DNA of 64,000 nt from Ruditapes philippinarum (GCF_026571515.1 NW_026862875.1:248001-312000), one strand, 5' to 3'; shown: positions 13,948-57,645, counted from the first letter of the stretch. The notes: generated by a model from the sequence alone, not told the origin. Made by a program: numbers and translations.

Positions 13948-14490
13948 CTAGAGCATCATTTCTGTATTTCCAGAAGATACACGACTTGTTTTGATATGTC
14001 CAGAAAAAATATTTGGCAAATCTTCATTCACTCCCTTTACAACATCGTTATTATCAGAACTTTTCTCCAATAAACTGTCTATGCTAAAAGGATTTCTCCT
14101 TCGAGGAGTTTCAACTAACTGCGTTTGCTTAGAATTGTTTTCTACTGCATCGCATACATCAATTTCATCCGCGTTTTCAGACTGAATATCCTCACTGTGT
14201 TTGTTATCAGAATCCGAGTTCTTTTTGTTTGTATCACAACTGCTGCTTGAGGTACTTGAAAAACTACTCATGCTGCTAAAAAGTTTCTTCTTTTCTTCTA
14301 ATTTTCTTACTCTCTCCTCTTGTTTTCTTCGCTTGCGTTCAATTTTTTCTTTTTCTCTTCTTTTAATTTCGTCTTCACTGATTGGTTCCCCGCTGCAAGT
14401 TTGCGGATGTGCATTGTGGGCAGGTCTTCCGGGACCTTTCCTTGTGTGTTCATGCTTTCTCCATTTAGCCCGCCGATTTTGAAACCAAAC
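13948..14490 (-). CDS. Uncx: Uncx/Unc-4 homeobox protein, coding exon 3 (helix 3, Uncx-specific extension, eh1 motif, stop)
   Basis: Acceptor tgttctgcAG then VWFQNRRAKWRKHEHTRKGPGRPAHNAHPQTCSGEPISEDEIKRREKEKIERKRRKQEE. The KGPGRPAHN.HP.TCSGEP extension is diagnostic of Unc-4/Uncx. NPFSIDSLL is an engrailed-homology-1 motif. In frame with ORF 13948..14271. Confidence 0.95.
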   Translation of the reverse strand, partial: VWFQNRRAKWRKHEHTRKGPGRPAHNAHPQTCSGEPISEDEIKRREKEKIERKRRKQEERVRKLEEKKKLFSSMSSFSSTSSSSCDTNKKNSDSDNKHSEDIQSENADEIDVCDAVENNSKQTQLVETPRRRNPFSIDSLLEKSSDNNDVVKGVNEDLPNIFSGHIKTSRVSSGNTEMML

Positions 14491-17400
14491 CTGCAGAACA
14501 TTGTGTTAATATTAGTATAATAAAAGAATGGATACAAAAATACACAGGCTTGTTTCTTATCTAAGGTCAATAGTAATAAAATATATTTATATAAAATTAT
14601 TTACTCTGACATTTTATTGCACCAGAATATCAGAAATATTGTCTTAATGTAACCACCCCTTAATCTTAACCTACAATCCAAATTTGACACACAAGATATA
14701 AAGAAGAAAAGATTATATTGTCTGTGCTATTCTTTGCGTATCTAATGGATGGTGGCGTTTTGTTTACGCTCACCGGAACATAAGTTGAACAGTTGTAGAA
14801 AATTCTTCATTGATTGACAAACTGATTGGTTTTTTGTTCGCAAAATAGTCTTATACCGACATGTACTTGATACCCGAACTTTTGATCATTATGGGCGATG
14901 AGTGGGTTTGTGGCATGTGCTTAAATGGGGGTCTACCCTGTAATTAGCAGATACATAATGGTGTTTGGCGCGTGCGAGAGCTAGTAATTATTGACACAAA
15001 TGGTACGCAACTTATAATTCAGTGCATCGAAAAAAGTATGGAATATCCAAGATTTATCTATAACAAAATATAAAATAACAATGGAAATGGGCTAAAGAAA
15101 TAGGATAAAATATAGTGTTATTCATATTCTATCACTGTAAGGGTTAATGAATGCTTATGGCAAATTGGAGACATATAAATAATTTGATACCACACTGATT
15201 TGTATGAATAATATTACTTACATTTTAAAAAATGTTTGTAATAATGTGAAATATTTGGAGCAATGATTGTTAAATTACAACATTATCATTATATTTCGTA
15301 CGCTTTGATTTTTATTATTATTTTCATTGTAGAAAATGAAATTGAGAGAAAAGAGGGACTAATTTATCAGATACAGACATCAGTTTCTGACTATTTTGTG
15401 CTTTTTTTTTATTAAAAATAATCGAAAAAAATGCACATTATAGGTGTCGCCACATGCAGAACCTGTATATCTTAATTGCATCGGAATATGATTCAAAAGT
15501 TAGAAAATTAATTATGTTCGTATTGAATAATGTATCCTTACCGTAAAATAATTATATATTCCTATATGATTTCCAGTTTCGAACATTATTTATGTTATTT
15601 ATATTGCAAACTATACTTTCACAGTGATAAATTGGTTTTTGAATTCTAATTAATTCCAAATGAAGAAGTAATTCATATTATAAACTTGTATGAATCCTTC
15701 ATTTAGAAAATAATTAAAATTGAAAAATTAAAACATAATTTGTCTTACTGTATGCTTTAAAGAAAGGTTTAAATATTTTGTAAAGTATAGACAAGAACTG
15801 AATCTCGTTTGCATAAAACTATCAATCGTATTAAATCCTTAAGATTAATTAATTGGAAAAGCATATAATAATTTTTTGAGATGTATTTAATAGTATTCAA
15901 TTTATTCAATTTCAAAATTATGTTATATATTTCAGTACATTATGATAGTATATATTTCAAAATTACGTTGTTGGTTGAATTTTTTTTATAAAAAAGGGCA
16001 ATGCAAAACAAAAAAGAAAATACACTACAATATTTTAATATGTTTTGTGAGAACGTTTATACAGTCAAAATAAATAACTTAAGTCTTGAGATAAAATAGC
16101 TTATTAACATCTGAAACGGAAAATGTATAAAAGTTTATCGAGCTTTTATATGCATGTACCTATCAAACCAATAATTCGTTACCATTGCATTTATATTAAA
16201 AACGCACACGTACTATGTTTTGTCTTAAGAAGATATCTAAAGATGACCTCATTTTTTTCAATATACTTTCAAACTGGTTCAAATTAACAAGCCACACACG
16301 TTATGTTTTGTTACTTCAATTGAAATAGATTTTTACTTCTTTTTTCTTCAAGTATAATTACAGGGTTGAAGAGGAGGGTTGTATCTAGCGGCACGTGTCT
16401 TCGCCTGTTAATACATACTAAATAGTTTTTTAAACATCAAAGTAACGAGTAAATTGTTCACTTAATTAAAATAGTTCGTCTTTAAATGCTTTTAAGCAAT
16501 TTAATTAATAGTTTAGCAAACTGTGACATACCGGGTTATTCGTTCAAGTAAGAAGTTTTAATTGTACCTCACATAGTTTGGCGATTGAAAATGAATAGTT
16601 TTATGAGGAAAAATATTTAACATCTGATTTTCATTCACTGCAATGATTGTGCCTCTATAAGTGTTTTTCAAATAACTAAAGGTTTTTTTTGCATTCGTGT
16701 ATATTTTCAATACATCCATGTTAGTTGCTAATATCTTAATTGAATTAAATGTAAAAACATTATATGAATTCATTAATACAAAAAATACCCAATCCATTAA
16801 TCTTTGCATTTCTCATATAATAGACAAAGCAAAGCTGATAAAATATTAATGACGAAACATAATTTTTTTTTTCATTATATCGTCAAATCATAGATAAATG
16901 TGATTTTTCTCTACAAATAAAAATATTTAATGTTAATACAGTTGTCTGATATAAAATCAAAGCAATGTAATTGAAATATATTAATAAAAAACGATGGAAA
17001 AAATATACTTTGTGAAGAAACCAGTTTTTTTACTCTTTTATTTATTTATTTATTTTATTTCTTTCTTTATTTACTGTTTTATAATGTGAAATATTCGTTC
17101 TCTGAGGGTCAATGTCAAAATGTATTTGAATATACATGCTAATAACCTAAACCTACGTCTTGTTTGTTTTTAGCATTTCTAGTGGTGCAATTTAACTATA
17201 TGAATGAGTTACTACTGTTGTTGGTGTTGTTGTAAGGTCAATTTTCGGTCTTTAATTCCTTATTACTTTCATACACTGTAACTATTAAATTCATTGATTT
17301 AGCAGTTCAATTTAATTGTGCCTATAATTCGGTCAGCTTGTTGAAATAATAAACTTGAGCAAAATAAAAATCTCACTTTGATTATAAACTTTATTGTGCT

Positions 17401-18829: not shown

Positions 18830-19068
18830 ATTGAAATGCTGTCATGTGTGTTATATTGCGGTGTAGGCATGTGTGTTATATTGAAATGTTGTAATGTGTG
18901 TCATATTGCCATGATGTTATGTGTGTGGTATTGCCATGCAGACGTGTGTGTGTGTGTTATATTGCGATACTGCCATGTGTGTGCGTGTGTGTGTTATATT
19001 GCGATACTGCCATGTGTGTGCGTGTGTGTGTTATATTGCGATACTGCCATGTGTGTGCGTGTGATATA
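18830..19068. repeat. GT-rich minisatellite, ~30-38-bp unit (GTTATATTGCGATACTGCCATGTGTGTGCGTGTGTGT), in Uncx intron 1
   Basis: Three near-identical copies at ~18956-19062 preceded by about four degenerate copies. This explains the Cys/Val-rich spurious ORFs at 18836 and 18898. Confidence 0.85.
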
Positions 19069-21644
19069 TATAGAAGGATCGCTGGTGTTGCAATGTCTGC
19101 TTTAAATGGATGTTTGTTACTTGACCATTGAGTTCAATGTTTTGTTCGGTTCTTTATGTTCGTTTTTTTACTTCCTTAAAACTTTTTTATAAAAAAGAAA
19201 TGCAATATATGGTCAATTTAAAAATAAAAGGCGTGGTTTTGTTTATAATAGCTATAATTAATTTTCATTTAAAAGTATGGCATGAAAATAGCAAACATAT
19301 TTTGTTTCTTGTAAATATGAAAAATATTTCTTTAAGAAATGAATAAATGGTGGTTGGTCTAACCATCAGATCATTATAATAATCTAGCTTCTAGAGTGTT
19401 TTATACCATTCTAATTCATAAATAAAATTTATCTACGCACCAAATTAATCTATCAAATTTAAAATTTAAGCACATAAAAATACAAAATATTTATTTTTAA
19501 TTTCGTCGGCTCATTTTTATTTGAGAATGCCTTTAAATATAAACTTTAAATTGTTAAGAAACATGAATGATAAATATAATATTTTAAGCAATGGCATTAG
19601 TTGTGTTTAGCTGAGTTAATATTACAACATTTAAAGAAGACAAATAAATCAGTAAGTTTAACATATTGAAAAGATTTTTTTTTTAAATGACATGACAAAA
19701 AAACACACGCCGATATTTCAATTACAGTTTTGAAAATGACTAAGGTGGAAATTTATTATAATAATCAATTAGACGAGTCGTCAATACCTTGGAGTGGCAT
19801 TATTGATATGAAATAAATAAAATAAAAAAATTAGATCGTTTTACCAAAACATTGGGAATAGATACATCGTAAATTAAATTCATTTTAGGTGTAATTAAGC
19901 ATAAATATTTGATTTCCTAATTGGCCACTCTTATTCAAACATTTCAATATCAGTGACGATACCAATTAATTGCAGGCATAAATCCTTTATTCATTTGATT
20001 CAAGTTTCATTGAATTATTTATTTAATAAAAAAAGGAATGACACTTTATATTCAATTAAAATTTGCAAGGGTATATTCTCGTCCACTTATGACATTAAAC
20101 TCCACTTTTAAGTCCAATACTGTGACACGAAAATTGATGAAAATTGAAATATAATTCTTAATATTTGAAATAAGTCAATATTTACTGAAATGATCTCTTC
20201 ATTGAAACCTTTTAATGAATGGTTTGTCCTAAACTCAATAAAATTGCGATTTAGCCATTGACGATATGGAGTGAAGTGTAAAAGTTGACTTATATTTTTG
20301 TGACAGTTTTGACACAAAGTAAGTAATCATTAAAGTAAGAAATATATACATTAAAAAGTAAGAAATGTATTAACACTTTTCAAATAACTATTATCTTTAC
20401 AAAAATAGCAACATCTCGATATATGTGTAAATTAAATATGTAGATATACGTTCACAATACATGTGTAAACCAATATATGTATACAATACGATGTAAAATA
20501 TCTAAATAATATATAATTGTTTGCTAATTCAATATTGATTTATCTAAAATAGACACTAAAATAAGCTTAACATATGGCTCCAGATGTAACTATGAATTAA
20601 ATACGGTTAAAAAACAAATGAGCATTATTTTACAAAATAAAACAATGATACGAAACAAGCAAAAATATAGGAGATGATTACTTTAACAACCAGTTTGTTA
20701 ATAAAATCCTCCCCATACATAAAGCTCAAGTTGTATTTATTATAGAGTTTAAGGACACGAAATGTTGCATTTCGTGAAAAACACCTTGTGATCAAAGGGC
20801 ATTTTGCACTGGTGAAATGATGTGCCTTGTGCTGTTATACACAGATACTCTCGACAAAACCCCGCCCACAATATAACCAAGAATAGACACTTCTTGTTCT
20901 TCTTCAACATTTATTCTGCTCTCACATAAAAGAAAGCACAATAAAATACCGTTTCATTAAAGAAAATTTGAATTGGTTGTTCATAAATATTATAATACTA
21001 ATACGTTTTCATTGCAAGAGATTAACGTTCCATTTTACCAAACTTTGTAATAACTGAATGATTTATTTAATGACTCAGGATGTGTTATTTTTTGTATTAT
21101 TTTTTGTTTGTTTTCATTTACCTGTTATAATTCATACCATTCATTTACTTATTCGTTAATTTAAATGCATCATTTTCAATTTCGAATATTTTGTATGGAT
21201 TTAATACTAATTTACAACGCAACATTGTATCTTGTTTTATTCATTTTTTGCTTGTTAAAAATCCTTGTATTTAAATAATGAATATTGAAACACCTTTTTT
21301 TTTAAAATATATTATTTTTCCTTGTATTGTCTCTTTTTATGATTAGATAAAGTCAATACAAATTAAAAAAAAATTATTGTAATTTTTTAACAAAAGTTTC
21401 TCCAAACATTTTTTGGGGAAATAGTATATTTTCTTTAAAATATTGTGTGAGTATTATCAGAAAGAAATATACTTTGTGTTCATTTGGTGATTATAATTCT
21501 GCTGTAATAACTTTTAATATATAAATAATTTTATACATGTATATATCATCAAATTAAAAAAAGAAAAAAAGTTGTAATAAATATTGATTAAACAAATTTG
21601 TTGTATACCTAAGTTGCAAGTTATATACATGATTGCTCTCTTAC

Positions 21645-21936
21645 CTTGCTCATGTTGACGAGTACCCAAATCACCGAGCGGGTCGGCCTTTGGTGACAAG
21701 TCCGAGGCATTTCTACTTCCGCAGTAACCATTTCCAGCAAGTTCTCCATTAGACACTAAAGAACTTAAAGTGTTAAGATATCCAGCATGATATTGTTGAT
21801 TCTTGGTGAGAGAAAGTTGGGCTACAGCTAGAGGATCCAGTAGGTGTGAATATCCTGCCAGTGGATGAAGGTACCGCAATTGTTGAAGTCCAAAATTAAA
21901 CCGCTGCTGTTGCAAGAATCCAAGTGGGTTTGTCAT
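21645..21936 (-). CDS. Uncx: Uncx/Unc-4 homeobox protein, coding exon 1
   Basis: ATG at 21936, MTNPLGFLQQQRFNFGLQQLRYLHPLAGYSH...LGTRQHEQ, donor G|GTAAGA in phase 1, matching the exon 2 acceptor (G+AT = Asp). Total CDS 292+173+543 = 1008 nt, 335 aa. Confidence 0.85.
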
Positions 21937-22214
21937 TGTCAACGCAAAAAAAATCAAATAATAAACAGTAGAAAAAAATGTTTTTTTCAGAATTTTGTTA
22001 AATATTCTTATATGTACGGAAAGTGTTTATTAAATGCGCACACACTTTCCTAAATAATGTTTGAATAAAATTAAACGTTTTCTTTCATTTTAACTGTCTT
22101 CCATCAATCATAAGTATGTTATCTAGATATCATAATTTGTTACTTTTTTTCCACGTTTCACTTTTCGCATGCTATCATGAACACTATCTTCTATCCTCAT
22201 ATGGTGGTATCGGC

Positions 22215-30518: not shown

Positions 30519-30582
30519 ATGTTCAAATTAAGTTTTATTTTCTTGACATTGGGATTATTAACAGTTTCGTTTGCAGCTAAAG
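30519..30582 (+). CDS. Secreted LDLa-mucin-chitin-binding protein A, exon 1 (signal peptide)
   Basis: ATG MFKLSFIFLTLGLLTVSFAAK: basic N-region, hydrophobic core and S-F-A cleavage-type motif. Phase-1 donor G|GTAAAA joins in frame to the exon at 38760. Not in the ORF track. Confidence 0.7.
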
Positions 30583-31020
30583 GTAAAATAGTTTATTTTC
30601 GTTTTCTTGTCCTTATACTTTCTGTAAATAACTCTGTATACTGGTATACATGAAAGTCTGACATCGTTTTCCTATAATTATGAAAACATCTGTTTTATTT
30701 TATGATAAATTTATTTTCATCTCTGGTTTTCATTTAGAATTATATTTGCACATTTTTTGCCATTGTAACTTAATACAATACTAAGACTTAAATGCGGTCA
30801 TTTTCTTTTATTAAGACAACATTACCAATGTGCATTGAGACAAAATTTGGGCAAATAACGCCCAACATTCATTTTGTTATTAAAAAGGTCTCAAGATAAT
30901 AAAATATGCGCTCTTTACTCTAACTTGACCGATACAAGACTTAATAATGTGAGAAACTGAATAAAAGTTCCATACTATGCTCAATCCTTACGTAAAATGT
31001 AGTAATCTCAGAAATTTACT

Positions 31021-33964
31021 CACGGGGGAGGAAGTGTTACACGAAGGATGGAGTTCTTATGATAACTTGTTTGGAGTTCTTATGATAACTGGTACGGAGT
31101 TCCTGGAAAATGTTACGGATTTCTGTGGAAAACTTTTCTATATACTTGGAGAACTTGCCTAAAAAATGGTTATTTTTAACTTTAAATGGGGAGTTTGAGG
31201 TGCTTAATTAAACTTTGATAATTAAGCTTGCCCTACATATTGTATTTTGTTTCAGAAAAAATCTTTTAGTCTATATTTTGTCGCCTTTTTTAAAAAAATC
31301 TGCATGTTTTGAGAAAAATTACCAAATTACTTGCTAATTCGTACATATTGACCTTTTCATTTGTGATCTTCTTCGTTGCTATACTTAATTACCTAATTAT
31401 TATGGAGAGTTGCAAACATAAAGCCCGGGCTAATAAATTTATACCCGAATTTTCAAATGTTACGGAGTTCTTGCGATAACTCAAAATATGTCCTGGAGTT
31501 CTTATGATAACTTTTGTTACTGCCAGTGTGTTTTTGTGCTTAATCACGGCGCGTTTAAGCGTATTTTATTAGACAATAAGTGTGTAAATCATTATGAAGC
31601 ATAGTACGCTTATCATTTGCACAAAAATTTGGTTATATAACGTTGGTTTTGATCGTGTTTTTCAGTTCAAGAGATATTTTTCTTACCTCCGTTTCTTGTG
31701 TTTTTTGTGTTTGTTTTGGTCTTTTTGTGTGTGTGTTTTTTATATTTTATTGGAATGACTGTAAACATACTTGATGTAGAGCATTTACTTACAGGATAAA
31801 AATACGCTTTGAATCATGATTTCGTCATATATACATTATTCCTGGCAGTTTTAGAGAACATTAAGTAACTATGCTATCGGTATGCATGTAAATGGTTTTC
31901 AGCAAAATAGGAGGTAGTATGCACTACCTTTATCTAAATTTAATGAGGTGGGTGTCGTCTTTATGCACGTTTCATTTATGTGCTGATTTGTCATGTGCAC
32001 GTTTTTCATGTACTGCAAATTCACAATAAACTACAAAAAATCGACATATCTTGCCTCGCCCATCACATCGACATATTTTTTCGGGCTGAAATGAACCTAT
32101 GGCTTGATTATATATGCATCACACATATTTAATATGTTCATATACATATCATCTTCGGACAAATGGCAGTATATTGTCAAAAATAAATGGAAAATTCATA
32201 AAAACACCCTACTTTCGGTTTTGCAGCGGCACGGGCTACCTCTCTTCATTTGAATTTTCATATCACAGGTACCCTCTCATTTTTTAACACATAGGTACCC
32301 TCAAAGCACGACATATACTTTTATGTGTTAATCGCTAAGTATGTAATATTTACATATAAGTAAGAAATATTACATACATACTTAACGATTAACGCAAATA
32401 AAAGCATATGTCGTGCTTTGAGGGTACCTATGTGTTCAAAAATGAGAGGGTACCTGTGATATAAAAATTCAAATGAAGAGAGGTAGCCTGTGCCGCTGCA
32501 AAACCGAAAGTAGGGTGTTTTTATGAATTTTCCATTTATTTTTGACAATATACTGCCATTTGTCCGAAGATGATATGTATATGAACATATTAAATATGTG
32601 TGATGCATATATAATCAAGCCATAGGTTCATTTCAGCCCGAAAAAATATGTCGATGTGATGGGCGAGGCAAGACATGTCGATTTTTTGTAGCTTATTGTG
32701 AATTTGCAGTACATGAAAAACGTGCACATGACAAATCAGCACATAAATAAAACATTCTAGTGTTCCGTGGTATACATCTTTTCTACGTGTCATACCTCCT
32801 TTCCTTATTACAATGAAATTTTACTGGATTGTTATCCATCGCTGGTTTGTTTTTAGCAGAGAATGACCTGTGCATGTTCGAAGAGGGTACCGTTTGAGCA
32901 GATTTCGCAAAGAGGGTACAGATATGGATATGAACCGTGATCATTGTCATAGAACTTTATAAGTTTCTATGACAAAAACTGATACCTTTTAGAAATTGAA
33001 ATACCCGTTGAAACATAAAGACGACACCCAACCCACCTCATTAAATTTAGATAAAGGTAGTGCATACTACCTCCTATTTTGCTGAAAACCATTTACATGC
33101 ATACCGATAGCATAGTTACTTAATGTTCTCTAAAACTGCCAGGAATAATGTATATATGACGAAATCATGATTCAAAGCGTATTTTTATCCTGTAAGTAAA
33201 TGCTCTAAATCAAGTATGTTTACAGTCATTCCAATAAAATATAAAAAAACACACACACAAAAAGACCAAAACAAACACAAAAAACACAAGAAACGGAGGT
33301 AAGAAAAATATCTCTTGAACTGAAAAACACGATCAAAACCAACGTTATATAACCAAATTTTTGTGCAAATGATAAGCGTAGTATGCTTCATAATGATTTA
33401 CACACTTATTGTCTAATAAAATACGCTTAAACGCGCCGTGATTAAGCATAAAAACACACTGGCAGTAACAAAAGTTATCATAAGAACTCCAGGACATATT
33501 TTGAGTTATCGCAAGAACTCCGTAACATTTGAAAAATCGGGTATAAATCTATTAGCCCGGGCTTTATGTTTGCAGCTCTCCATAATAATTAGGTAATTAA
33601 GTATAGCAACGAAGAAGATCACAAATGAAAAGGTCAATATGTACGAATTAGCAAGTAATTTGGTAATTTTTCTCAAAACTTGCAGATTTTTTAAAAAAAG
33701 GCGACAAAATATGGACTAAAAGATTTTTTCTTAAACAAAATACAATATGTAGGGCAAGCTTAATTATCAAAGTTTAATTTAGCACCTCAAACTCCCCATT
33801 TAAAGTTAAAAATAACCATTTTTTAGGCGAGTTCTCCAAGTATATAGAAAAGTTTTCCACAGAAATCCGTAACATTTTCCAGGAACTCCGTACCAGTTAT
33901 CATAAGAACTCCAAACAAGTTATCATAAGAACTCCATCCTTCGTGTAACACTTCCTCCCCCGTG
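31021..33964. mobile_element. ~2.9-kb palindromic (foldback) element with CACGGGGG...CCCCCGTG termini
   Basis: 31021-32351 is the reverse complement of 32365-33964, apart from scattered substitutions and a ~260-bp segment (32754-33013) present only in the right arm. 13-nt central loop. Repeated subterminal GGAGTTCTTATGATAACT motifs. No TSD and no transposase ORF. Confidence 0.9.
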
Positions 33965-34871
33965 TATAGGGATGCTGGAATAATTTCTTAGTTAAAAGGG
34001 TTTTAATATTTGATTGCATTTCATGTTTTCTTTGTCTGCGCATAGGCAGGTCTATTTTTTCACGTGTATTTCATGACCGGGTCTGTCTGACTAGAACAGA
34101 CCTGTGCACGTGCAAAAGATAGACCTCATAACGGACTTTCTTTTGTTTAAACAGGTCTATCCGAAAAATATAGACCTATCACAAACAATAGAGGAGGTGT
34201 GTAAATTTACAAAGAGACTGTAGAAAATTTTTAATATCAAATTTGGGCATATAGTATATCTTTCAGCGATTAATAACGACAGGTTTTCATATTTGCTAAC
34301 TGCTTATTAACTTTTAATTCAAGGAGTTTCAATATATTCGTTTTTTTTTTTTTTTTTTCGATTTATGGCATTGCTTGTGACAATCGATGCCCATGATATG
34401 TTTATTGCGTTGTTTTAGTTTGTTCGTTTGATATCTTTTTATTTCAAATCATAATATTTTCCAAATGTTTGAAGATATGTTTTTAAAGTGTATTGAGATA
34501 TCCGGAAAAAACGAACACTCCCGTTGCTAATGTTTCTTATTATAACCTTAGTTGTTAAAAAATGATATGAGTGTAGGACAAATGATGTGGCTTTACAGAG
34601 GCTGTACTGTAATATTAATTATTTTATAGATCAAAACAAATCTTTAAAGGATATAACAGCAATTGTTGCAAGCAGGTATTGTAGGACCTATCTATCTTGA
34701 TTCAATAATGACAGTGATGGCGATACACATTGGTACATGCCTATAGCAATGACTGTTTGGTTGTTAAAGTAACGTTCTGCTCATTTTTTGTTGTCAATTT
34801 AAGCTGAATTCTATCTAGCTTCCATTTACTCAAACCCCTGCTGGGAGTTTTCGCGTCACTAGTAAGAAGGA

Positions 34872-35338
34872 TAACAAGAACGATCAGTGATCACTTGTGT
34901 CGCCAGTTGATAGCCCATTGTTTATTGCGGCGACTGCTTAGCAGGAGACACAAAACTCATAAATAAGCCAAAACGCGTTTTATTCAAGGGCCATACCTCA
35001 GCTAAAATTCATTCAACCGGAAAACTCGTTTAATATGCGCAAGTACTTGAGGTACCAATCAGTCCTGTAAATTGTCATTTAAATTGCATAAGTAGTATCA
35101 GAGAATTAGTACAGGCAAAACTTTGAAATTTAAAATCATTGAACCGTAAGATGCATTCGATATACAAAACTAGACTTGGCACTGATCATTCCTGTAAAGT
35201 TTGTATGAAATTGCACCAGGAGTTTTTAAGGAGTAGTCCGGGCAAGTATTGTGACGGACGGCCAGACAGACGGACAGACAGACGCCTGAGAAGTGATCCC
35301 TAAATGTCGCCACAACTCTGTAGCAGGCGACACAATAA
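34872..35338 (-). mobile_element. Non-autonomous Helentron-type (HINE-like) element
   Basis: AACAAGA end, subterminal inverted repeat TGTGTCGCC/GGCGACACA and a (GACA/GACG)n microsatellite near the other end. Same layout as 42438-44216 and 58637-59965, in reverse orientation. Confidence 0.6.
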
Positions 35339-35344
35339 CAGGGG

Positions 35345-35645
35345 TTTAAAAGTGAGATAAAAGTTTAAAATAGAATAAAGCAAAACATGTGTGTATTTAG
35401 GGTGAGGCTTACAACCTTACTGAGCATTGGTCAGACAGGGGCCAACATCTGGGGGAAAGGCATTCAAATGAAAAATGGTCTTAAGGAAGAATTAGTACTT
35501 GTAGTAGACGGTAGCTGTTGGAATTTGTTTGAAAGCAAGGAAATGGGGATTTCGAGTAGGTCTAACTACTGGGGGAGATCTGGAAAGGGAGGGAGACTAG
35601 CAATATTGCTATATACAAGATTAGCTATTTTGATAGCCATTGACC
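35345..35645 (-). mobile_element. Decayed 3' end of a CR1/L2-group LINE ORF2
   Basis: Minus-strand translation of 35563-35444 gives RPTRNPHFLAFKQIPTATVYYKY*FFLKTIFHLNAFPPDV, matching the TR..H......Y+.SFFP+TI..WN.LP C-terminal motif of these LINEs. Contains an in-frame stop. Confidence 0.65.
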
Positions 35646-36279
35646 AATACTTAATAATGGAAAATGTTTATCATTAGATATTAAAACTGCCTTAAATATA
35701 AAAAGACTGCCACAATAGTTTTATCAATTGTTATTTCCAATATCTTTCGAAGGATATTTACAGAATTTCACATTTTCACCAGTCCTAATTAAACATGTGA
35801 AGAAGAATAGTAAATTGGAAATGATTATGGTATAATGTAATGTAATTTTGCCTCTTACCTGTACACTCACCATTAAGCCTTGGATGAGCATAATGCCACT
35901 TTAACATTTACGTATAACTTACTTATGAAAATTGTGTATCAATATAATTAAATAGATCATGAGCAATTATAAATGGCGTCAAAACTGATAATAATACATG
36001 TATAATAATGTATGGAAAATATTATGAAAAAAATGCAAAAGATTAATACAAATACAGACTTTTTCTGTTTTCTACACATATGTCAGTCGATAACATGACA
36101 TATTTATGGCAAAACGCGCCGTTTAAGATTCATGTTTAAGCTATTTATTTTGTTTGTATTCATTTTTTCACCTTGGTGGAGCAAAATGTTGAAATACGAA
36201 GACATGACATTTGTGCCTTGTTGTACTTTCGTGATTTCAACCTGTAGGATTTTTTGCCTCTTTACACCATTATTATGTA

Positions 36280-37831
36280 ATAGTTACCGTACGAGGAATA
36301 GGTCTGCATAGTATTTACAGACCCGGGTGGCGATTTGAAGACCGAGAGAGCGTAGCGATCGAGGTTTTTAAAAGGCCACCGGGTCTGTAAATACTATGCA
36401 GACCTATTCCGAGTGCGGTAACTATCTTACCTACATGCTCTTTTGTTTTTCTATCCATACATCAGTTTTTAGCTCAGTATTTATCAATATTACTCACAAG
36501 AAACATAATTATTACTTATGTACTTTATCATGTTTAAGAAAGCATTCCAAAGCCAAGCAAAGATACCATCCGCTACGCTCTTGTAATTCATTCGTTCACA
36601 AATCAGGTGTTATTTGAATATTCTCGTGATTTTCGTGGGGTTTCATTAGGTAATGTACTTGTTGAGTTGAGTCACAGAAAATGAAAACAGAACTTGTCGA
36701 GTAGGGAAAGGTAAGATCATTATTTTGATATGTGAATACATAACATATTAATAATATAAACACATACTGAGGAAGATAAAAATGTTTTCTAATCATAAAA
36801 ACGGAACACTTTATCTTTATATATAATCATGGTAAATAGATGATCAGGCTATTTCTTATATACATGTAATTAAAATATACGATTTTTTCAAAGGAAAGTA
36901 CGAGACGGGGTTCTATGAATAAATATTAGTAATACATGTAGTTACACCGTTATGTAAGTTGGGTTTTGTTGTTGTTGTTTTTTATGATGGCTGTTTTTAA
37001 ATGTTCTTAGAATTTCATCCATGTTTGGAAGAATTTTCTTTCCGTGTATTATTAATTAGCATCATCCGTTTTTAGACCGCATGTAAGCACGCGGTCTAGA
37101 ATGGAAGCGCAAGTCATATTCTTGGTACTGGTATACAAAATCCAAATTGTAATGTAAAAATAACTGGGAAAAAAAGGTCTTATACTTAAGATGAACTATA
37201 CTCTCACTGAAAGTAATATTTTGGAAAAAGGAAAGATGCAGAAGTTGACTTTGATTCGATATGCACAAATAATATAATCGTCGTATACATCCTATAATGC
37301 AGAATTGTTAAAATAATGCAGGATTGTGCAAATTCAGACATAGTTGTGGAAATAAATACCGAAAACTAGTATCTTATGAATATATATAGTTCGGCAAATG
37401 TGTTAGGTATACCGAAAAGCAAACTTTAAAGAAAGGCTTAATATGCGTTGTTATACTCATTAATATCGACGAAACACAAAACTTTAACGCCAGAACAGTA
37501 GCCAGTTCGTTTTTCTCACAAATAATCTGGAATATAAGTTATGAGGGTACTTACAGCCGTATACGCTAATTTATTTCGATTAATCTTTGAAATATATATC
37601 GACCCTTTTTCCTATTCAAAGTGGTCATTATCCCCCCCCCCATCCCCCACAATTTAGCGTTATTTTACGGTGAATATTGTGTACTGTAATGCACGAGTTT
37701 CTCGGCTTCACATAGTTTCTATTGTATAGAGAACAATAGAACAATAACCGGTCGGTATCTATTTGCAGACCTGTTAACCGGTCGGTAAGTGATTTACTAG
37801 ACCGCTTTTAACAAAGGAGCCGGTAGGTAAC
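36280..37831 (+). mobile_element. Non-autonomous hairpin-ended DNA element (Crypton-like, second family)
   Basis: 146-nt terminal hairpin at 36280-36425 with a perfect 30-bp stem GGAATAGGTCTGCATAGTATTTACAGACCC and a GAGCGTAGCGA loop. The adjacent TTACCTACATGCTCTTTT is inverted at the far end (AAAGGAGCCGGTAGGTAA, ~37812-37830). Confidence 0.55.
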
Positions 37832-38759
37832 TTTTTTTACCCTGTCACATGCGTACAAAGAAATGAAAGATGCAATACTTCATGTTGTGGGGCAAAAATG
37901 CAACGGCCGAGTAAATGAAAACACGTTATAGTCACTATTCGTTGTGTAAGATTTTTTTTAACTTTCTCCCCGCCATGTCTGAAACGCAAACTCAACAAAT
38001 TTAAGGCGAAATCAAGATACATGAAATTTGTCGTTTTGTCGCGCCATAAATCTGTCGTTTAATCGTGTTTTCATGATAATTAATAAATAGGACAATTAGC
38101 AGGAAAGCACACTTATACAACGATGAATTTATAAATCAACCATCTTACATCGAGTAACATATATATGAATAGGAAAGAAAATAGAAAAGCGAAAAACACA
38201 CAAAGCGCTAGTATTTTGTGATAACAATAGAAAATAATTCTTGGAAATCTGCTTAAAGATGTCCAGTCTAAGATAGATGTATCAATACTTAGTCCGTTCT
38301 AACATGTATAAACATCTGATATTTGTGTTATAGATAACATAGTAATATAGATAATATATTAATAAATACACTTTTATGCAAGAAAGTGACGTTGTAGGGT
38401 CTTGCAAGAAATTCTTTAGAAGCAGCTGTAAAAAGTTGCTCGTACTTCACTTGAGTGTTGGTATATTTTTCTGGTCTTTCTGGATAAAAAAAAATCCAGC
38501 ACTTTTAAGTGTTGAAAATTGAGTACCACTCACAAGCTGATGTTAGAGGACATGAGAGATGTTGCACTTTTTCATTATCCTTCATGTACAGACTACGATC
38601 AAACCAAGTCTGCAAAGTTCATGTAATTTTATTGTGATTAATGCTTCCGATGAATAACATTTTGTACAGATTTTTATATTTGACATTTCTAAGTTGTAAG
38701 GATTTAATGTACTAATATATAACAATATAATGATGCACACCGTTTCTTGATATTTCAAG

Positions 38760-38882
38760 GTACTCAGACATGTGGTGCAAACTTTTGGCAATGTGCTGAT
38801 GGATCTTGTATATTCCTGGTGGGTCGTTGCGACAACTTTCCTGACTGTGAAGACGAATCAGACGAAAAGGGATGTGCTTCAG
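38760..38882 (+). CDS. Protein A, exon 2 (LDL-receptor class A module 1)
   Basis: (G)TQTCGANFWQCADGSCIFLVGRCDNFPDCEDESDEKGCAS: six Cys plus the Ca-binding D-x3-DCxDxSDE motif. Phase 1-1 exon, 123 nt. Confidence 0.9.
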
Positions 38883-41808
38883 GTGATATAAAAATATGCT
38901 AGAATAGTTTTCTATGTTGTCATAATAGCCACTAATTCCCTTCAATAACGTCCTTTAGATATTCAAAGCAATTTTCAGCAAGAGCCTGTTTCAACCTTGC
39001 TTCAGCTTTATGATACGATGTACCAGTTTTAGGCAATAATCATGAATAAGGAATTCACTCTTTTGCAAAATTTTACTGTAAAAAGCACAAATTTGTGTCA
39101 ATATCATACCATCTTAGTCTTAATTCCTAACCACGCTAACAATGTTTTAATGGACTTGTTCATTTTTCAATCCGGACAATACCATTTATCATTTTTAGGG
39201 AAAATTTAATGTGATATTTGATGAAAACTTTTTCTTCTTTGAAACGATATTCTCTTTCTTTCATGATTTTGAAATTTTTGTAAAATTAGCGTCCTAAATT
39301 AAAACAATTTTATTGAATTTGTTGCGTTCATTTGCTTAGAGACATACGTTTCATTATTGAACTGCGAAATTTTGGTGTTTTTTTTTCTTCCTTTATTTAA
39401 ATAATTCCTTTTCATTTTTATTCTTTTTTATTTTTTTTTGGTAAAAATAACACGGTGTTAAGGTAATGTTATTAACAAACAATGAAAATGTATTTCATTA
39501 CACTACCGTTTTGCTATCAATGCAAAATTAATTTTTTCGAAATATTTATTCTGGTTTTAGAAATTAGTCAGCATGATTTTACGAACTGGTCTAAGTACAC
39601 TAAGACACTAAGATCTAAAAGCTTTGACATTAACAAAACATAGAGTATTTGAATACTCGACACGAGAACCGTGCTAAGCCGGATACATTAGCCAGATTTC
39701 ACTGTATTTTAAAGTGCATACTATCTCTGAATAGTTCGGTATGAAAAATATAACACATTTTATCTTTTTCATTCTTTTAATGTCTAGGTAAAACTTTTAT
39801 AGTTTAACCACATCTATTCATTACGGTGTGCAACATGACATTGAAATAGTTAAGAAGTAAAGGGTTAAGTTACTTGTTAACTTATTTCTAGTATAATTTA
39901 TCAAATCTGACGGAGAAAATGTTCAGTAATTTTGTTACATCACGACACAAACCGATTATTTTCATAAGAATATAAAAGGCATATTTCATACTGCCAAAAC
40001 AAGTGTAAATAATAATTTTATATAAAAGTATAAAAACTTGTTTCATTTTTGTATCAGTCTTTTGGCATATTTTTGTTTTAACAAAAATGACCAATTTTAC
40101 CAAGCCTGTTGGTTATCATTATGAACTTGTCCATTGGACAAAATCTTTTATAATTTGTAGGGAAATATTTTTAAATAAGAGCTAACTGAATGGCGAACAA
40201 TGCAGACCATGATTAGACTGCATTGAGGTGCCGTTTGATTTCCGGACTGGTCGGATTGGTACGCTAACAAGCTATGGGGTAACGGCATATTCTTAGTTTG
40301 GGGATCTTTCTGATGAAAATGTGTCAGAGTTAAATAATATACACATACATGTACAGTGCGTTAACTGGAGTGCAGGTATTAGTTAGTTGTTGATTGGCTT
40401 TGTTCTGTGGTTTAGTAATAGAAAGAGTATCGACACACGAGGCTATCTGATTTGTACGAGGGGGCATAGACCGCGAGTATAAATCAGAATGCCGAGTGTT
40501 TTGATGTTCTTTCTCTTTTGTATCATAGGCAAAAATAAAAACACGTTCCCTGTCGTCGCAATATTAAACCCCAGAAAAAAGTAACCAATGTAGGAGCTTC
40601 CAAATATGACTGTTTTTTTATCCTTTTCCCTGTCCTCGCAATAAGTAAACCCCAGAAAAATTTGCCAATAAAGGAGCATACTCTAGACAGACAGTGAGTG
40701 CAGGTTACTAAAACCTGCACTCCAGTTCACGCACTGTACATGTATTGTATACGATTTAACTCCGACACGTTTAAGTAAAGGCCCAAAACTATGATACAAC
40801 TTATTTTGACGACAGGGAAAGAGATAACGATAGAAAAGTCATATTCAGATGCTCGTTCGTTGGTTACTTTTTCTGGGGTTTATTATTGTGACGACAGGGA
40901 TCGTGTTTTATTGTACGCCTCTCGTACAATTCAGATAGTCTCGTGTTTCGATGCTCTTTCTATAACGTAAACCTCGAGAACTCAGGAACGAATATGATTT
41001 TTTTTCTTAGAAAAGGCAACCCTGTGTTATAATAATCTTATAATAGAATTAAAGCAGTTAGATACTTATTAATGAAGAAAGCAACAAGGAATGTTAGTTT
41101 GTTAAAAAACAGCAACATAAAAACAAAGTAATATTCTGTGTTCCATATTAAATATCAAATCATTATAACTAAATTTATTGCCAATTTTGCCTAAAACAAG
41201 AACGAAAAATTGCCAAAAGCCATTGAATGGCCATTAGGAAATTGCAACAGAAAAACAAAAATTAAAAGCTTTTGAAAATAAGGAAAAGCTTTTCAGAAAA
41301 AAAAACATATTTTGAGCTTAATGGGTCTTTATTATTTTTAATTTCTACACATTTAATTTCATCAGTGTTGATTGCATACTTTTTATGCACTTTATTTTAT
41401 TTAGTGCCGCATTGTAACAAAAATGTACTATATTTGTCTCTTACACAACTAGAAGTTTGGACCCATGGGAAAACAAGTGACGCGATACCCAACATAATTA
41501 TGTTTCATTAAGCCAGTTAAAGATACCTTTTTCAAACAATCGTGACGAACGCTAATCATTTAAGTCCCGGCAAGTTAAGGTTTAAATAAAGGGGAGTAAC
41601 TTAGTCGTAAGTATTACGATCACTTTATTAATAGCCATTGCCCTTGACAACTTTTACGCCCATAGCATCTAGACTTATGATCAATTCTAATACCCAAAAG
41701 GCTTTTGCTCCTATTAATCGACATCAAAACAAATTTTGACGGTTGCTTTTAATTCATATATGTTAAATAGAAACATATGTTTCTGTTACTCATTTTTTGT
41801 TACAATAC

Positions 41809-42270: not shown

Positions 42271-42390
42271 TTGTGTGTAAAGAGGGTCAGCGCCCATGCT
42301 CCTCAGGAGAATGTATAAATGCCAACTTTTTCTGTGATGGGATAATTAACTGTAGAGATGCCGGTGATGAGCTAGCGGCTGACTGCCCAG
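42271..42390 (+). CDS. Protein A, exon 3 (LDL-receptor class A module 2)
   Basis: (V)VCKEGQRPCSSGECINANFFCDGIINCRDAGDELAADCP. tttcAG acceptor, GTATGA donor, phase 1-1, 120 nt. Confidence 0.9.
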
Positions 42391-42437: not shown

Positions 42438-44216
42438 TTTAGCTCGACTATTCGAAGAATATGAGAGCTATTGTAGTCGCCCCGGCGTCGGCGTCGGCGT
42501 CAGCGTCCGCGTCGGCGTCTGCGTTGGTTAAAGTTTTTTGTAAAGTCAAATATCTCAATTATTACTTGAGATATTCAATTGAAACTTACAATACTTATTT
42601 ATAGTAACAAGGTACATCAGATTGACAAGTTTGATAACTCTGCCTACAATATTGACAGAATTATGCCCCTTTTTAACTTAGAAATTTTGGTTAAAGTTTT
42701 TTGTAAAGTCAAATATCTCAATTATTGCTTGAGATATTCAATTAAACTTACAATACTTATTTATAGTAACAAGGTACATCAGATTGACAAGTTGGATAAC
42801 TCTGCCTACAATATTGACAGAATTATGCCCCTTTTTAACTTAGAAATTTTGGTTAAAGTTTTTTGTAAAGTCAAATATCTCAATTATTGCTTGAGATATT
42901 CAATTGAAACTTTACAATACTTATTTATAGTAACAAGGTACATCAGATAGACAAGTTGGATAACTCTGCCTACAATATTGACAGAATTATGCCCCTTTTT
43001 AACTTAGAAATTTTGGTTAAAGTTTTTTGTAAAGTCAAATATCTCAATTATTGCTTGAGATATTCAATTGAAACTTACAATACTTATTTATTGTAACAAG
43101 GTACATCAGATTGACAAGTGGGATAACTCTGCCTACAATATTTACAGAATTATGCCCCTTTTTAACTTAGAAATTTTGGTTAAAGTTTTTTGTAAAGTCA
43201 AATATCTCAATTATTGCTTGAGATATTCAATTTAAACTTACAATACTTATTTAAAGTAACAAGGTACATCAGATTGACAAGTGGGATAACTCTGCCTACA
43301 ATATTGACAGAATTATGCTCCTTTGGAACTTTTTTGTTTAAAGTTTTTTGTAAAGTCAAATATCTCAATTATTGCTTGAGATATTCAATTGAAATTTAAA
43401 AATACTTTTTTGTTGTAACAATGTACATCAGTGTGCAAAAATTGCATAACTCTGCCTGCAATATTTGCAGAATTATTTGCCCCTTTGAAACTTAGTAATT
43501 TTGGTTAAAGGTTAAAGGTATTCAAAGATATTTACTTGAAACTTTACACATGCACTTAGGGTCATAATTGGAGGGTCATAATTGTATGTCACTGACCAAG
43601 TTCCATAACTCTATCTTGCATTAAGGCTGATTCATATCCCCTTTTCTACTTAGTCTCTTGGTTAATGTTTACATGCAAGTTTTACATATCTCAATGACTA
43701 TTAAAGATATTTATTTAAAACTTCACATATGCATTTAGGGTTATAATTGTAGGTCACTGACAAAGATCCATAATTCTATCTTGCATTTAGGCTGATTTTT
43801 CTCCCCTTTTTCAACTTAGAAATTCATGGTAAAGTTTTGTTTGTAAGCTGTTATCTCAATAACTACTGAAGGGTTTGTCACTTTGTGCCTTTTTTGGGAC
43901 AATTTTATGCATTCATAATAATAAAGCAGTGATTTCTTGATAAAACATCTTAATAACAAGCCTTTGTACCTTGTCTGTCAAATTTATTTTTCATAGGTAA
44001 TTAGTATTATTATATTCAATAAAACACCCTTGTGACATTACCTTCCGAATAGTCAAGCCAATACTGTATAATTAGACTCTCTCTAAGGCCTATAACATGA
44101 ATTTATAACAAAAAATTAGCCCTTTTGTGAACTTAAAAAATTTAACATTATCAAGGCTCTTTTACTATCAAGCACTTAGAATAGTCGAGCGTGCTGTCCT
44201 TCCGACAGCTCTTGTT
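42438..44216 (+). mobile_element. Helentron-type non-autonomous element (HINE-like) with internal ~163-bp satellite array
   Basis: T-rich ends; subterminal IR GCTCGACTATTC / GAATAGTCGAGC (44179-44190); (GGCGTC)n microsatellite; units start at 42526, 42689, 42851, 43015, 43178, ~43336 and 43503, then diverge; 3' stem-loop GCTGTC-CTTCC-GACAGC followed by TCTTGTT. Confidence 0.8.
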
Positions 44217-45847: not shown

Positions 45848-46303
45848 GAGAAACCACAACAAAATCAAATGCAAACACTTCCACGGAGGATTCACTACCT
45901 AGCCCTATCAAGAGTTTGACATGGACACCACGTCAAGTTCAAGACACGACTATCCAGCCTTCAACGTCAAAACCACAGAAGCAAAGAGAACTAGACTGGG
46001 GACGCATATTTGCGGCTGAGTTGGTAAACAAACCGGCCACAATGTCTGAACCTTCTCTGCCGGATATAATAGTTCCTAATATTCCCCCAAAAACTCATAT
46101 TTCGGTTCAACCAATCAAAAGCTTCGTTTCAACAACACTTAAGTACAATATTCCTGATTGGGCAATGTCAAAAGTTAAGGAGACCACCACGCCCCTATAT
46201 CAGCCACGTGTTTCTACAATACCATACTGGTTTTATTGGTATAACACAACCTATCAACCAACAACGTCACGAACCCCTTGTGTAGAAGTGGATGACCGTT
46301 TTG
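45848..46303 (+). CDS. Protein A, exon 4 (Thr/Pro/Ser mucin-like linker)
   Basis: tttacAG acceptor, GETTTKSNANTST...TPCVEVDDRF, donor G|GTAAGT. Phase 1-1, 456 nt, inside ORF 45796..46425. Confidence 0.85.
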
Positions 46304-47191: not shown

Positions 47192-47682
47192 AATTTTGCC
47201 GCAAGCGTTATCGTGGTTATTACCGCCACCCAAACGACTGCAAGCAGTATATTGTATGTGAATGGGGATTTATGCATATATGTACATGTCCAGAGTTAAC
47301 TCACTGGGATCTTCGAGCTCTAACGTGCGTTTGGGAGAACACTTCACCGTGCATAACAGGAACTTATGATAAACTGATAATAGCTGACCAAATTACAATG
47401 CCAATACCCCCGATTATGGCACCGTCACCATCAACATCACTTCCTACAACGACGCAGATATCAACGACAACATCAGATTTGTCTTCTTCATTGCCAAATA
47501 TTGTACCACCGCTTGTTAGACTGCGCGCCCTACCTGCAACACCGGCTTGGCTGAAAGAACTCACTGCAAAATCTTTTTCTTACCAAAATGAGCCGCAAAC
47601 ACCACGTTATCAGTCGCTCTTGACAAGATTCTTCAAAGCAATGCCACATAGTACAGCCAATGAGAACATAAGACTAAGTTAA
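47192..47682 (+). CDS. Protein A, exon 5 (CBM14/peritrophin-A chitin-binding domain plus Thr/Pro tail, stop)
   Basis: (E)FCRKRYRGYYRHPNDCKQYIVCEWGFMHICTCPELTHWDLRALTCVWENTSPC has C-x13-C-x5-C-x9-C-x12-C-x7-C spacing. Full CDS 64+123+120+456+491 = 1254 nt, 417 aa. Confidence 0.9.
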
Positions 47683-47944: not shown

Positions 47945-50193
47945 CTGCATTTTTTCATAATATTGTTGATAGCAGCATGCCTCCAGAATAATGCTAATTT
48001 TCATGAAAGTTTTTTAATGAATTGCAAATTAAAATATTGTGAAGTGAACAAATGGCACTTATGACTTTGAATATGAAACTACCCATAGGGATAAAAATAT
48101 TTGCATTTAAGAAGACTTGCTAAACATTTTTCTTTCATACAAGTATTCTTTTTCAAAATTTAAATCGCAAACACATTTATAAAGATATATAGCTTTATAC
48201 ACCTACAGAAGTGGCAAAATTATTTCATATTTTCTATTATAGTTGTGTTTTATAGCTCGTGACTCGACAATATTCAAACAGACCTTATACACATTTCGTC
48301 ATTAATTCGAATTGTAGCAGTTGCCTCCCTTAGACGCAAAGTTGGTGTCAACAATGTTATTATGTCATTAAAAAATACGCAGGCCTCAAGGTTATGAATC
48401 TTTGCTAAAGTTACGTCTCAAATCTAAGGATTATCAATGATAAGTGTACATTCTATGTTAATTCTTTACTTACTAAGTACTGGGGATTTGAGTTAGATCT
48501 TAGACAATTACTGTTTAGCCTCATACGCAGACTTACAATTATCTCTGAACACATGCAACAATATCTGAACTAGGAAACTCTTAGTATCCGACCCGAGTTG
48601 CAAACAAAGTGTGCGCTTGATTATAGTGAAAGTCTGTATACTTATTTAGGTAAAATATTTGTATATTTGGTATCGAAATTTGCGGAAATGTATTGGCTAC
48701 ACTGTGGTTTATATTTAATTGAAATTTGATTTTTAACAAAACTTCGATAACAACTGAGGGATGAAAAGAAAAGTTGCAGAATTGTGCTTTTTATCAATTC
48801 GGTTTTTTCCTTTGGATACTTGATTTTTATTCGAACATCGTTCAAACTCAATTCCATAAAACGTTCTATTAACGTCCATTCAGTCTCAAACATTTTACTT
48901 GATTCATAAGCGAGATGGAAGCAATAGATGATTTTGAACAAGATAAAACGCGTAAAGCTTATATTTTCACCCTATCGTTATGTACACGAAACAAAAATCT
49001 GATATTAATCAAATTTCAATACAAAGTAAACCACTGTGTGGTCAATACATTTAAATTTCTCACATTTGCCTATATTTTGCAGAATTCTCAAGAAATCATA
49101 GTTTTATTTTTCAACTGATTTAATTATTTTACAAGTACTGGAGAGTTCGCTTTCAGAAAACTCAAATATGTCAGTTTCTTCCTTGCGAATGGCCAGTGAG
49201 ATTTCCCGGTTATTAAATATGGGTTTGCTGTTGGGCAAGCGGGCGGTTGAAAACATTTTTCTGTTCGCAACTTCTAATTCATTCTCAAGCGCTTTTCACA
49301 AAACTTTTAAAGAAGCATCATCATCAATATTGTCATCAATATTGTCGGTGTTTGGCAAATATTTTGGCAGAATTATGGCTCTTTGATTTTTTACATATAT
49401 AATACATAGGGAAATCTTCTTTGAATTTAGAATCTACTCAAGATATTATAATATTTTGGAATTTTATGCATATCTTTGTTATACATCAAATGATATCACT
49501 GAACAATTCCATAACACTGACCAACATTTTGACAGGAATTTGGCATTTTTCAGGCTAAAAGTTTAAGTTATAGAGGTAAATCACTGTCACTGATAGCTAG
49601 GGTTTTTGATTTCTGACTTCTTCTACATTAATACAATATATAAATGCAGAATAAATGATGTATGTAAATAGTAAATAGTAAGCAAGTAAACGTACAAAGT
49701 AAACAAAACGACAGAGGTCCACATAAGATACCACTATAATTTAATAAATATATTAGTATTATATATAGTGTTAATTTGTTCTTAAGTTTATTGTTCGTAA
49801 TAATATGCATCAAATTAGATACAGTTAACATTTCAAATCTGTAGAAACATAAAACATACAAATTAATACTCATGTATATATTATATATGTTAAAAATCAT
49901 AATTCGACAAAATATGCTCGAATTGCAAAATGCTGGCAATATGCAATAGGGCACTTGATGACGAAGCTTCTGTGAAACATGAAACACTAAACACCACTTT
50001 TCGTCGCATTGCGGTGTTTCTTGTCCAGTTCTTCGCTGTGAATGTCACAGGAAGTCTAGGTCAGAATAGACAGTCTACGGCCAAAAAAGGCAATTGCTTC
50101 GAGAATCATAGAATCCCGGAGTATACGTAATGTACCGACGCACGTAATACGTTTCTCTTCAGAAAACATACTCATAACTGTTGAAATTTACAG

Positions 50194-57587: not shown

Positions 57588-57645
57588 CTGAAAGTGAAAA
57601 ACAAGATTATAACAATATGTATAATGTAAGTATGGCTATTTAAAG

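Follow-up and report, generated by a model that had tools for sequence, protein, structure and literature searches.

A near-spacerless 2.9-kb palindrome in intron 1 of a gene for a chitin-binding protein in Ruditapes philippinarum: a probable foldback-type element

The host gene and the position of the palindrome

The palindrome described here occupies 2.9 kb (positions 31021-33964) of a 64,000-nt stretch of the genome of the clam Ruditapes philippinarum (GCF_026571515.1, NW_026862875.1:248001-312000). This whole stretch is called the window below, and all positions are counted from its first letter. The palindrome lies in a gene for a chitin-binding protein, here called gene A, for which we have a model of five exons with GT-AG borders and an open frame of 417 amino acids. 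The protein has a signal peptide-like start, followed by two LDLa domains, a linker rich in Thr and Pro and, last, a chitin-binding domain of the CBM14 family. Searching with the last exon gave 402 candidates, two of which are the homologs from Mercenaria mercenaria and Mactra antiquata (62% and 40% identity, respectively, over the query exon). Both homologs align across the whole of the gene A model, and the exon order is colinear on both sides of the palindrome. In both, the first LDLa domain comes directly after the signal peptide, matching the gene A model, and it is for this reason that the palindrome is placed in intron 1. The model is derived from the genomic sequence and the homologs only, and non-coding or species-specific exons are conceivable. 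Within the 8177 nt of the intron, the palindrome starts 438 nt past the donor and ends 4795 nt ahead of the next acceptor, in agreement with an earlier note on this DNA, which had put it in an intron about 440 bp past the signal-peptide exon of protein A. The coordinates of all features are collected in Table 1.

Geometry of the palindrome and identity of its arms

Self-BLAST finds two inverted blocks, 31021-31965 against 33964-33014 (98.1% identity, 1631 bits) and 31969-32753 against itself (1251 bits), while in all ten of ten shuffled windows the top minus-strand self match was at most 44.6 bits. Global alignment of the left arm (1331 nt) with the right arm (1600 nt) gives 1310 matches and 21 mismatches, or 98.4% identity. 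The palindrome is real, and these analyses reproduce exactly the arms that had been proposed for it. All of the gaps in the alignment lie in the left arm; there are five, their lengths being 1, 5, about 257 (net), 2 and 4 nt. The earlier description of scattered substitutions and one 260-bp indel is correct as far as it goes, and has to be extended by the four small indels. It is worth adding that five indels out of five across 31021-33964 shorten the left arm relative to the right, although the sample is small.

Outside the centre and the large junction, 17 of 1290 sites distinguish the two arms, or 1.3% (95% confidence interval 0.8-2.1%). The substitutions outside the deletion junction number 20, these being 12 transitions and 8 transversions. 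There are no N bases in the window. The 2-kb flanks of the palindrome are unique and show no similarity to each other; the left flank compared with the reverse complement of the right flank gives a score of 9, which was equalled by 584 of 5000 random pairs and was rejected as a match. Patches of gene conversion were also considered, and rejected because the differences along the arm are not significantly uneven overall (Kolmogorov-Smirnov, KS, p 0.14).

Outer ends and subterminal motifs

The symmetry of the arms ends sharply at 5'-CAC and GTG-3'; CAC occurs at a frequency of 0.0094 per position. Inside these tips is a short motif, motif A, whose core GGAGTTC is present in five copies per arm and in none in the remaining 61 kb of the window. 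The copies are at arm positions 30, 53, 76, 444 and 475, all in a single orientation, the outer three being spaced at 23 bp from the tip. These arrays are putative transposase-binding repeats, and the inner pair marks a terminal module of about 500 bp. To judge from the CAC...GTG tips and the motif arrays, the outer ends look like transposon ends. An exact 19-bp repeat at a spacing of 20-60 bp is found outside the element solely in the 37-bp minisatellite near 18950.

A second motif, motif B (GAGGGTAC-like), forms a cluster of three copies near the axis in each arm. An isolated copy of it at 37543-37550, elsewhere in intron 1, has no further likeness to the arm. At the inner ends, self-comparison of the arm found neither an inverted copy of the outer terminus nor any terminus-like sequence.

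The axis

A 13-nt loop had been noted at the centre, and its length and position are correct. However, it is not an unrelated spacer, since it belongs to a tandem duplication that spans the axis: 32336-32356 and 32357-32376 (21 and 20 nt) are identical at 18 of 21 positions. Tandem Repeats Finder (TRF) independently reports the repeat, with a period of 21, 2.0 copies and a score of 61. The direct-repeat score of the loop, 14, was equalled by none of 5000 random and none of 5000 shuffled loops when the arms were held fixed (means about 7.5). Each copy of the repeat looks like the tip of the arm followed by the reverse complement of that tip. That the loop is part of this duplication and not a foreign spacer is the new point of the present analysis. 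The differences between the arms cluster towards the axis, 8 of the 26 falling within the 121 nt nearest to it (binomial p 0.0016), in a window picked post hoc for which the scan-corrected p is 0.12.

The simplest reading of the repeat is that it is the scar of a once-spacerless palindrome, whose tip would have been duplicated and altered during or after the fold-back event. A mechanism of breakage at the centre of palindromes was reportedly the subject of Cunningham et al. in 2003. Long palindromes without a spacer are described as the most unstable kind, their instability being lessened by short spacers (PMC7999016), and palindromes formed by template switching are reported whose junctions can rearrange secondarily and erode (PMC10766186).

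The 260-nt segment and the left-arm deletion

The large indel consists of a 260-nt segment found only in the right arm, which faces three bases found only in the left. It contains two copies of motif B (at 32883 and 32912) and a 32-nt hairpin, and has a 6-nt direct repeat at its borders. Because it holds motif B, which is otherwise clustered near the axis in both arms, the segment is probably native. A separate insertion was considered on account of the 6-nt flanking repeat, but the segment is without terminal inverted repeats (TIRs) and has motif B, and deletion from the left arm is preferred.

At the junction in the left arm, 9 nt match a stretch that lies about 30 nt away. A match of this length was reached by 17 of 5000 random 61-mers, or 43 of 5000 when both strands were counted, and it suggests the signature of a templated insertion. 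Microhomology-mediated end joining with templated insertion gives just such a combination of microhomology and an insert copied from nearby. End-joining repair appears to have removed 260 bp from the left arm, in which case the ancestral palindrome would have been about 3.2 kb long.

Searches for coding sequence, RNA families and further copies

The Pfam scan covered the open reading frames (ORFs) of the right arm, which has everything present in the left. No family reached the cut-off for the 18 scanned of the 35 ORFs of at least 40 amino acids on both strands, the longest being 97 amino acids. The best match, to Ornatin, had an E value of 0.0007 and scored 19.8 bits where the cut-off is 25; it was rejected as a coding remnant. 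Similarly, no Rfam family reached its gathering score in the window. Ten weak Rfam matches around the element, seven of them to microRNA-precursor models over the axis and none to a hammerhead, are far under the cut-off and are explained by the generic hairpin shape.

Searches of the window for further copies with blastn (word size 7) gave three matches of 18-20 nt (E 0.30), which were attributed to chance and rejected, and nhmmer gave none. Two terminal patterns searched for in prokaryotic genomes had no match each, which has little bearing on a clam element. Among the supplements of PMC10294476, files 1-12, 24 and 25 of 33 (about 400 nt per consensus) contain no match to the motifs. In its bivalve DDE file two Chapaev-3 entries begin with CAC, the two that open with CACG carry the label Sola-2, and TACACG opens no entry. 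No bivalve foldback element of such a size was found in the literature, as judged from titles and the starts of abstracts, Repbase and Dfam not being covered. Literature searches for bivalve mariner elements with long TIRs, and for the term LONGPAL, also gave no match. Long palindromic elements do exist in Caenorhabditis elegans.

Origin of the element

We consider it probable that the element is a young, non-autonomous DNA transposon of the foldback type, in which one element end has been mirrored, with little effect on the host. The foldback kind has long been known from flies and plants, and the clam element is most likely a further example, its superfamily being unassigned. Several features of the class are present: the arms are long and make up most of the element, they carry modular repeats (five copies of motif A and three to five of motif B per arm), and they are non-coding. 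The repeats are short motifs, a long tandem domain being absent. The earlier note had offered either a foldback transposon or a fusion of two element ends, and the CAC...GTG tips and the motif arrays support this without proving it, an exact target-site duplication (TSD) and a second copy in the window both being absent.

The structure could have arisen as follows. The end of a cut-and-paste (DDE) element, made up of the terminal module of about 500 bp with its binding motifs and about 1.1 kb of internal non-coding DNA, would have been copied back onto itself, via fold-back synthesis or hairpin replication. This would have produced the palindrome of about 3.2 kb. Its ends, identical and each tipped with CAC, could have let a transposase mobilise it in trans. 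The palindrome would then have settled at its present position in intron 1, its TSD being lost or never matched. Later the spacerless centre may have been damaged, or stabilised, by the 20-nt duplication, and the left arm would have lost its 260 bp through end-joining repair; for both of these the pattern is visible in the sequence, and the mechanism is what we suggest. In the pre-mRNA, the arms are computed to pair into a duplex of about 1,310 bp, looping out in mid-intron.

A number of observations weigh against this origin. There is no second copy of the element in the 64-kb window by blastn or nhmmer, and its mobility is consequently not demonstrated. No exact TSD of 2-12 bp is found at the symmetric ends, and a TA pair is obtained only when both ends are moved outward by 2 nt, at the cost of the symmetry of the termini. 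TA does stand directly 3' of the right end, but on the left it is 2 nt off the terminus and the flank ends in CT; in DNA as AT-rich as this it may be due to chance. An enrichment as high as that of the top 8-mer was reached in 3 of 60 control stretches, so the count alone is not decisive, and the position of motif A at the tip is the stronger point. The motifs are absent from the first 400 nt or so of the entries in PMC10294476's curated file of bivalve DDE consensus sequences, a library of autonomous elements in which a related family may go unseen, and the motif strings were not found in the full texts of papers. Finally, the arm divergence of 1.3%, with its confidence interval of 0.8-2.1%, does not by itself exclude a mixture of haplotypes.

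Tetris and Galileo offer structural parallels. Tetris of Drosophila virilis is reported to have TIRs of up to 1,735 bp without ORFs (PMC4079207), and it resembles the clam element in having very long modular TIRs with repeats inside them. However, Tetris is described as having a middle domain, tandem repeats of about 220 bp and TSDs of 8-10 bp (PMC4079207), whereas the clam element has none of these, but only short motif repeats. Galileo extends its TIRs, to as much as 1,260 bp, by recruiting sequence from its interior, the longest TIRs being those of non-autonomous copies (PMC3573991, PMC4168063). Its two-TIR and extended-TIR copies share with the clam element the lengthened TIRs and the repeated binding sites, and some of them also have no matching TSD. 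The likeness noted is one of structure. Galileo is a P superfamily member and has a 7-bp TSD, and the accessible parts of these accounts do not mention a spacerless axis (PMC3573991, PMC4168063).

The termini suggest other comparisons. CAC...GTG termini are reported for Chapaev (PMC4079192) and for EnSpm, the CMCT clade being described as having CA..TG termini and TSDs of 2-5 bp (PMC12730594). The clam element has the 5'-CAC...GTG-3' termini of CMC/CMCT elements (Chapaev, EnSpm/CACTA, Transib), but not their TSDs of 2-5 bp (TWA for Chapaev3) (PMC4079192, PMC12730594). It is non-coding; a further mark of the class is a DDE transposase that carries the motifs C(2)C and H(3-4)H. [quoted passage not shown] Tc1 elements of the Bari type, as described in PMC4877112, similarly have short direct repeats in the outer and inner parts of a long terminal repeat, and the TA 3' of the right end of the clam element would suit them, but the clam module is about 500 bp against about 250, its repeats are spaced about twice as far apart, and its left flank ends in CT, not TA. 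The TSD sizes of CMC/CMCT and of Mutator- and P-type foldback elements (7-10 bp) are likewise not found at the ends of the palindrome. Since the TSD feature of each group is missing (TA being ambiguous), and since the element lacks a transposase, an assignment to CMC, Tc1/mariner, Mutator or P is not possible.

Alternative explanations

The alternative that survives best is a one-off local rearrangement, which we regard as unlikely but worth serious attention. Here a resident transposon end would have been duplicated in inverted orientation on the spot, by template switching, by sister-chromatid or hybrid-end transposition or by ectopic recombination, and the palindrome would not be a mobile unit. 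The outer junctions would then need no shared TSD, and none is found. The single copy in the window suits this origin, as does the centre templated from the arm tips, with 8 of the 26 differences in the last 121 nt (p 0.0016, window chosen post hoc); there are also precedents, in the chimeric copies reported for Galileo without matching TSDs (PMC3573991) and in the template-switch palindromes with secondary junction erosion mentioned above (PMC10766186). However, the symmetry breaks off at an identical terminal base on either side, and no flanking sequence is mirrored beyond it, which is unexpected for an event without a transposase; the overall spread of the differences shows no departure from a uniform distribution (KS p 0.14; scan-corrected p 0.12).

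An artefact of assembly or reading, by a fold-back read or by the joining of two haplotypes, is improbable. Most of the small weight that we give it goes to a weaker form, in which only the 41-nt centre of a real, perfect, spacerless palindrome was mis-polished; the near-duplicated 20-mer with three differences at the axis could indeed stem from a poor join. The arm divergence of 1.3% is haplotype-like, falling in what we take to be the range of allelic divergence in bivalves, and all five indels are in one arm. On the other hand, a fold-back read would run on into upstream DNA in reverse-complement form, whereas the 2-kb flanks are dissimilar, and the exons of gene A carry on in the order of the homologs. 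There are no Ns, 21 substitutions against 5 indels is unlike read error, and the large indel shows the pattern of microhomology and templated insertion. The argument made previously from the arm differences against a read fold-back holds, joined now by the flanks and the exon order and helped by the excess of substitutions, with the haplotype-like divergence counting the other way.

We attach equally little probability to a class of palindromic element that makes no TSD, or whose inverted ends are reverse-transcribed. Crypton-like, Spy-like and Helentron-derived elements have no TSD or acquire inverted ends by reverse transcription, and Penelope-like elements have inverted pseudo-long terminal repeats; a hammerhead ribozyme in the terminal repeat is a feature of Penelope-like elements and retrozymes. 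The missing TSD is as expected for these, and other short palindromes in the window (36280-36425, 40317-40772) are also without a clear one. Nevertheless, the CAC...GTG tips and subterminal direct repeats suit DDE elements with TIRs better, neither a hammerhead nor any other Rfam family is found at gathering score, and there is no similarity to the other repeats of the window.

Two independent insertions of 1.6 kb, tail to tail and 13 bp apart, are very improbable: motif B is concentrated close to the inner ends, a pattern that a second element end might also show, and 1.3% divergence would suit two young copies, but the spacer is not host-like, the centre being built from adjacent arm copies, and the inner ends have neither an inverted copy of the outer terminus nor any terminus-like sequence.

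The predicted RNA duplex

A foldback element in this position would give its host pre-mRNA a long hairpin. Folding of 30519-34200 predicts 1312 pairs between the arms, with 12 uninterrupted helices of at least 21 bp, six of them at least 100 bp and the longest 210 bp. The suggestion of a double-stranded RNA hairpin of about 1.3 kb is in this sense borne out, as a prediction. In the predicted fold, the donor region is not paired with the element, and the hairpin contains neither splice site. On the transcribed strand, the 12 transitions between the arms give 6 G-U wobbles and 6 A-C mismatches; this even split gives no sign of selection for RNA pairing, which was rejected. Other inverted repeats (36280-36425, 40317-40938) occur in the introns of gene A, so hairpins in its pre-mRNA are not exceptional; the palindrome is several times longer than these, and better matched.

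On paper, the predicted duplex is a good substrate for ADAR or Dicer. Editing by ADAR is plausible, by analogy with the oyster, where host RNAs are reported to be hyper-edited by ADAR (PMC9044936), and with C. elegans. In the latter, 72.3% of editing-enriched nucleotides are reported to be intronic, the editing-enriched regions are largely derived from transposons, small interfering RNAs (siRNAs) from them increase upon loss of ADAR, and removal of three such regions left wild-type expression unchanged (PMC5859968). The clam palindrome resembles these regions as a long intramolecular duplex, probably derived from a transposon, in an intron, and differs in that editing and siRNAs were measured in C. 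elegans while the clam duplex is predicted from sequence (PMC5859968). By the same analogy, the most likely fate of the duplex would be A-to-I editing in the nucleus and removal together with the intron, gene A being little affected. Endo-siRNAs and altered splicing, also put forward in the earlier note, would be hypothetical consequences. Nothing in the sequence shows that the element has a function for the host.

Implications

If the favoured foldback reading holds, the locus adds one more element to a group that has been sparsely catalogued; in the related Mercenaria, about a quarter of the genome is described as unclassified repeat (PMC8905726). It also provides a natural example of a long, near-perfect palindrome gaining central asymmetry and repair scars while being kept in an animal germ line. 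It is, in addition, a single locus at which to ask how bivalve ADAR or Dicer treats a kilobase intronic duplex, an area that the oyster editing study names as open (PMC9044936). A transposon specialist would find the element surprising only if its family were without TSD and spacer genome-wide, or if the hairpin were regulatory. An extended proposal that includes both would be an undescribed clam family of perfect, spacerless, TSD-less, multi-kilobase palindromes, in which every copy later acquires a stabilising scar of its own at the axis. The present copy would be a source of kilobase hairpin RNA, and the siRNAs made from it would silence its family in trans, or would tune gene A. We consider this a long shot.

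Table 1 Features of the palindrome and of gene A (positions in the window)
Feature	Positions	Strand	Basis
Gene A exon 1, signal peptide-like N-terminus	30519..30582	+	gene model and homolog alignment
Gene A intron 1, 8177 nt, contains the palindrome	30583..38759	+	gene model and homolog alignment
Left arm, 1331 nt, deleted copy of the putative mirrored element end	31021..32351	+	self-BLAST and global alignment
Left terminus CAC, no exact TSD with the right flank	31021..31023	+	CAC frequency 0.0094 per position
Outer subterminal array of motif A, period 23 bp (arm positions 30, 53, 76)	31048..31102	+	motif count and TRF
Inner motif A pair (arm positions 444, 475), oriented like the outer copies	31464..31511	+	motif count
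Deletion junction in left arm, short insertion matching sequence about 30 nt away	31963..31976	-	9-nt match, randomised 61-mers
Motif B, three copies near axis, left arm	32235..32302	-	motif search
Tandem duplication spanning the axis (21 and 20 nt)	32336..32376	+	TRF and randomised loops
Apparent loop, 13 nt	32352..32364		arm alignment
Right arm, 1600 nt, fuller copy of the putative mirrored element end	32365..33964	-	self-BLAST and global alignment
Motif B, three copies near axis, right arm	32420..32487	+	motif search
Right-arm-only segment, 260 nt	32754..33013	+	BLAST, alignment and motif B content
Mirror copy of inner motif A pair	33474..33521	-	motif count
Mirror copy of outer subterminal array	33883..33936	-	TRF
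Right terminus GTG, followed by TA	33962..33964	+	end comparison
Gene A exon 2, LDLa	38760..38882	+	Pfam PF00057, E 4e-10
Gene A exon 3, LDLa	42271..42390	+	Pfam PF00057, E 8e-8
Gene A exon 4, Thr/Pro-rich linker	45848..46303	+	gene model and homolog alignment
Gene A exon 5, chitin-binding CBM14 and C-terminus	47192..47682	+	Pfam PF01607, E 2.6e-9

Other features of the window

The window contains at least five other, shorter inverted-repeat elements. One in intron 1 of gene A (36280-36425) is a palindromic element of 146 bp with 47-bp arms of 94% identity and no TSD at its symmetric ends, which we take to be Crypton-like. Intron 2 has two interleaved sets of inverted repeats at 40317-40938 (40317-40772 and 40509-40938). 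Two related short palindromic elements at 11323-11528 and 60798-61002, which are 71% identical to each other, are MITE-like, and there is an inverted repeat at 48686-49052 with 53-bp arms at 81%. Tandem arrays are found at 42524-43871 (unit about 163 bp) and 58739-59846 (about 145 bp), each with a short microsatellite ahead of it, a layout which is presumably that of bivalve Helentron/HINE elements. There is also a 128-bp array at 1-743, and the 37-bp minisatellite already mentioned extends over about 18840-19060.

A second chitin-binding gene, probably a paralog of gene A, converges on it from the minus strand (52829-58519). It has a single Thr/Pro-rich open stretch of 1309 codons (53677-57606), a CBM14 exon (52832-53065, E 8e-12) and a weak LDLa-like match near 58433-58519. 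Also on the minus strand, 13948-14505 is a homeobox exon encoding the end of a homeodomain (Pfam E 0.0002, under the cut-off), with a possible upstream exon near 21514-22026; the motif that follows the homeodomain resembles, we presume, that of UNC-4/Uncx.

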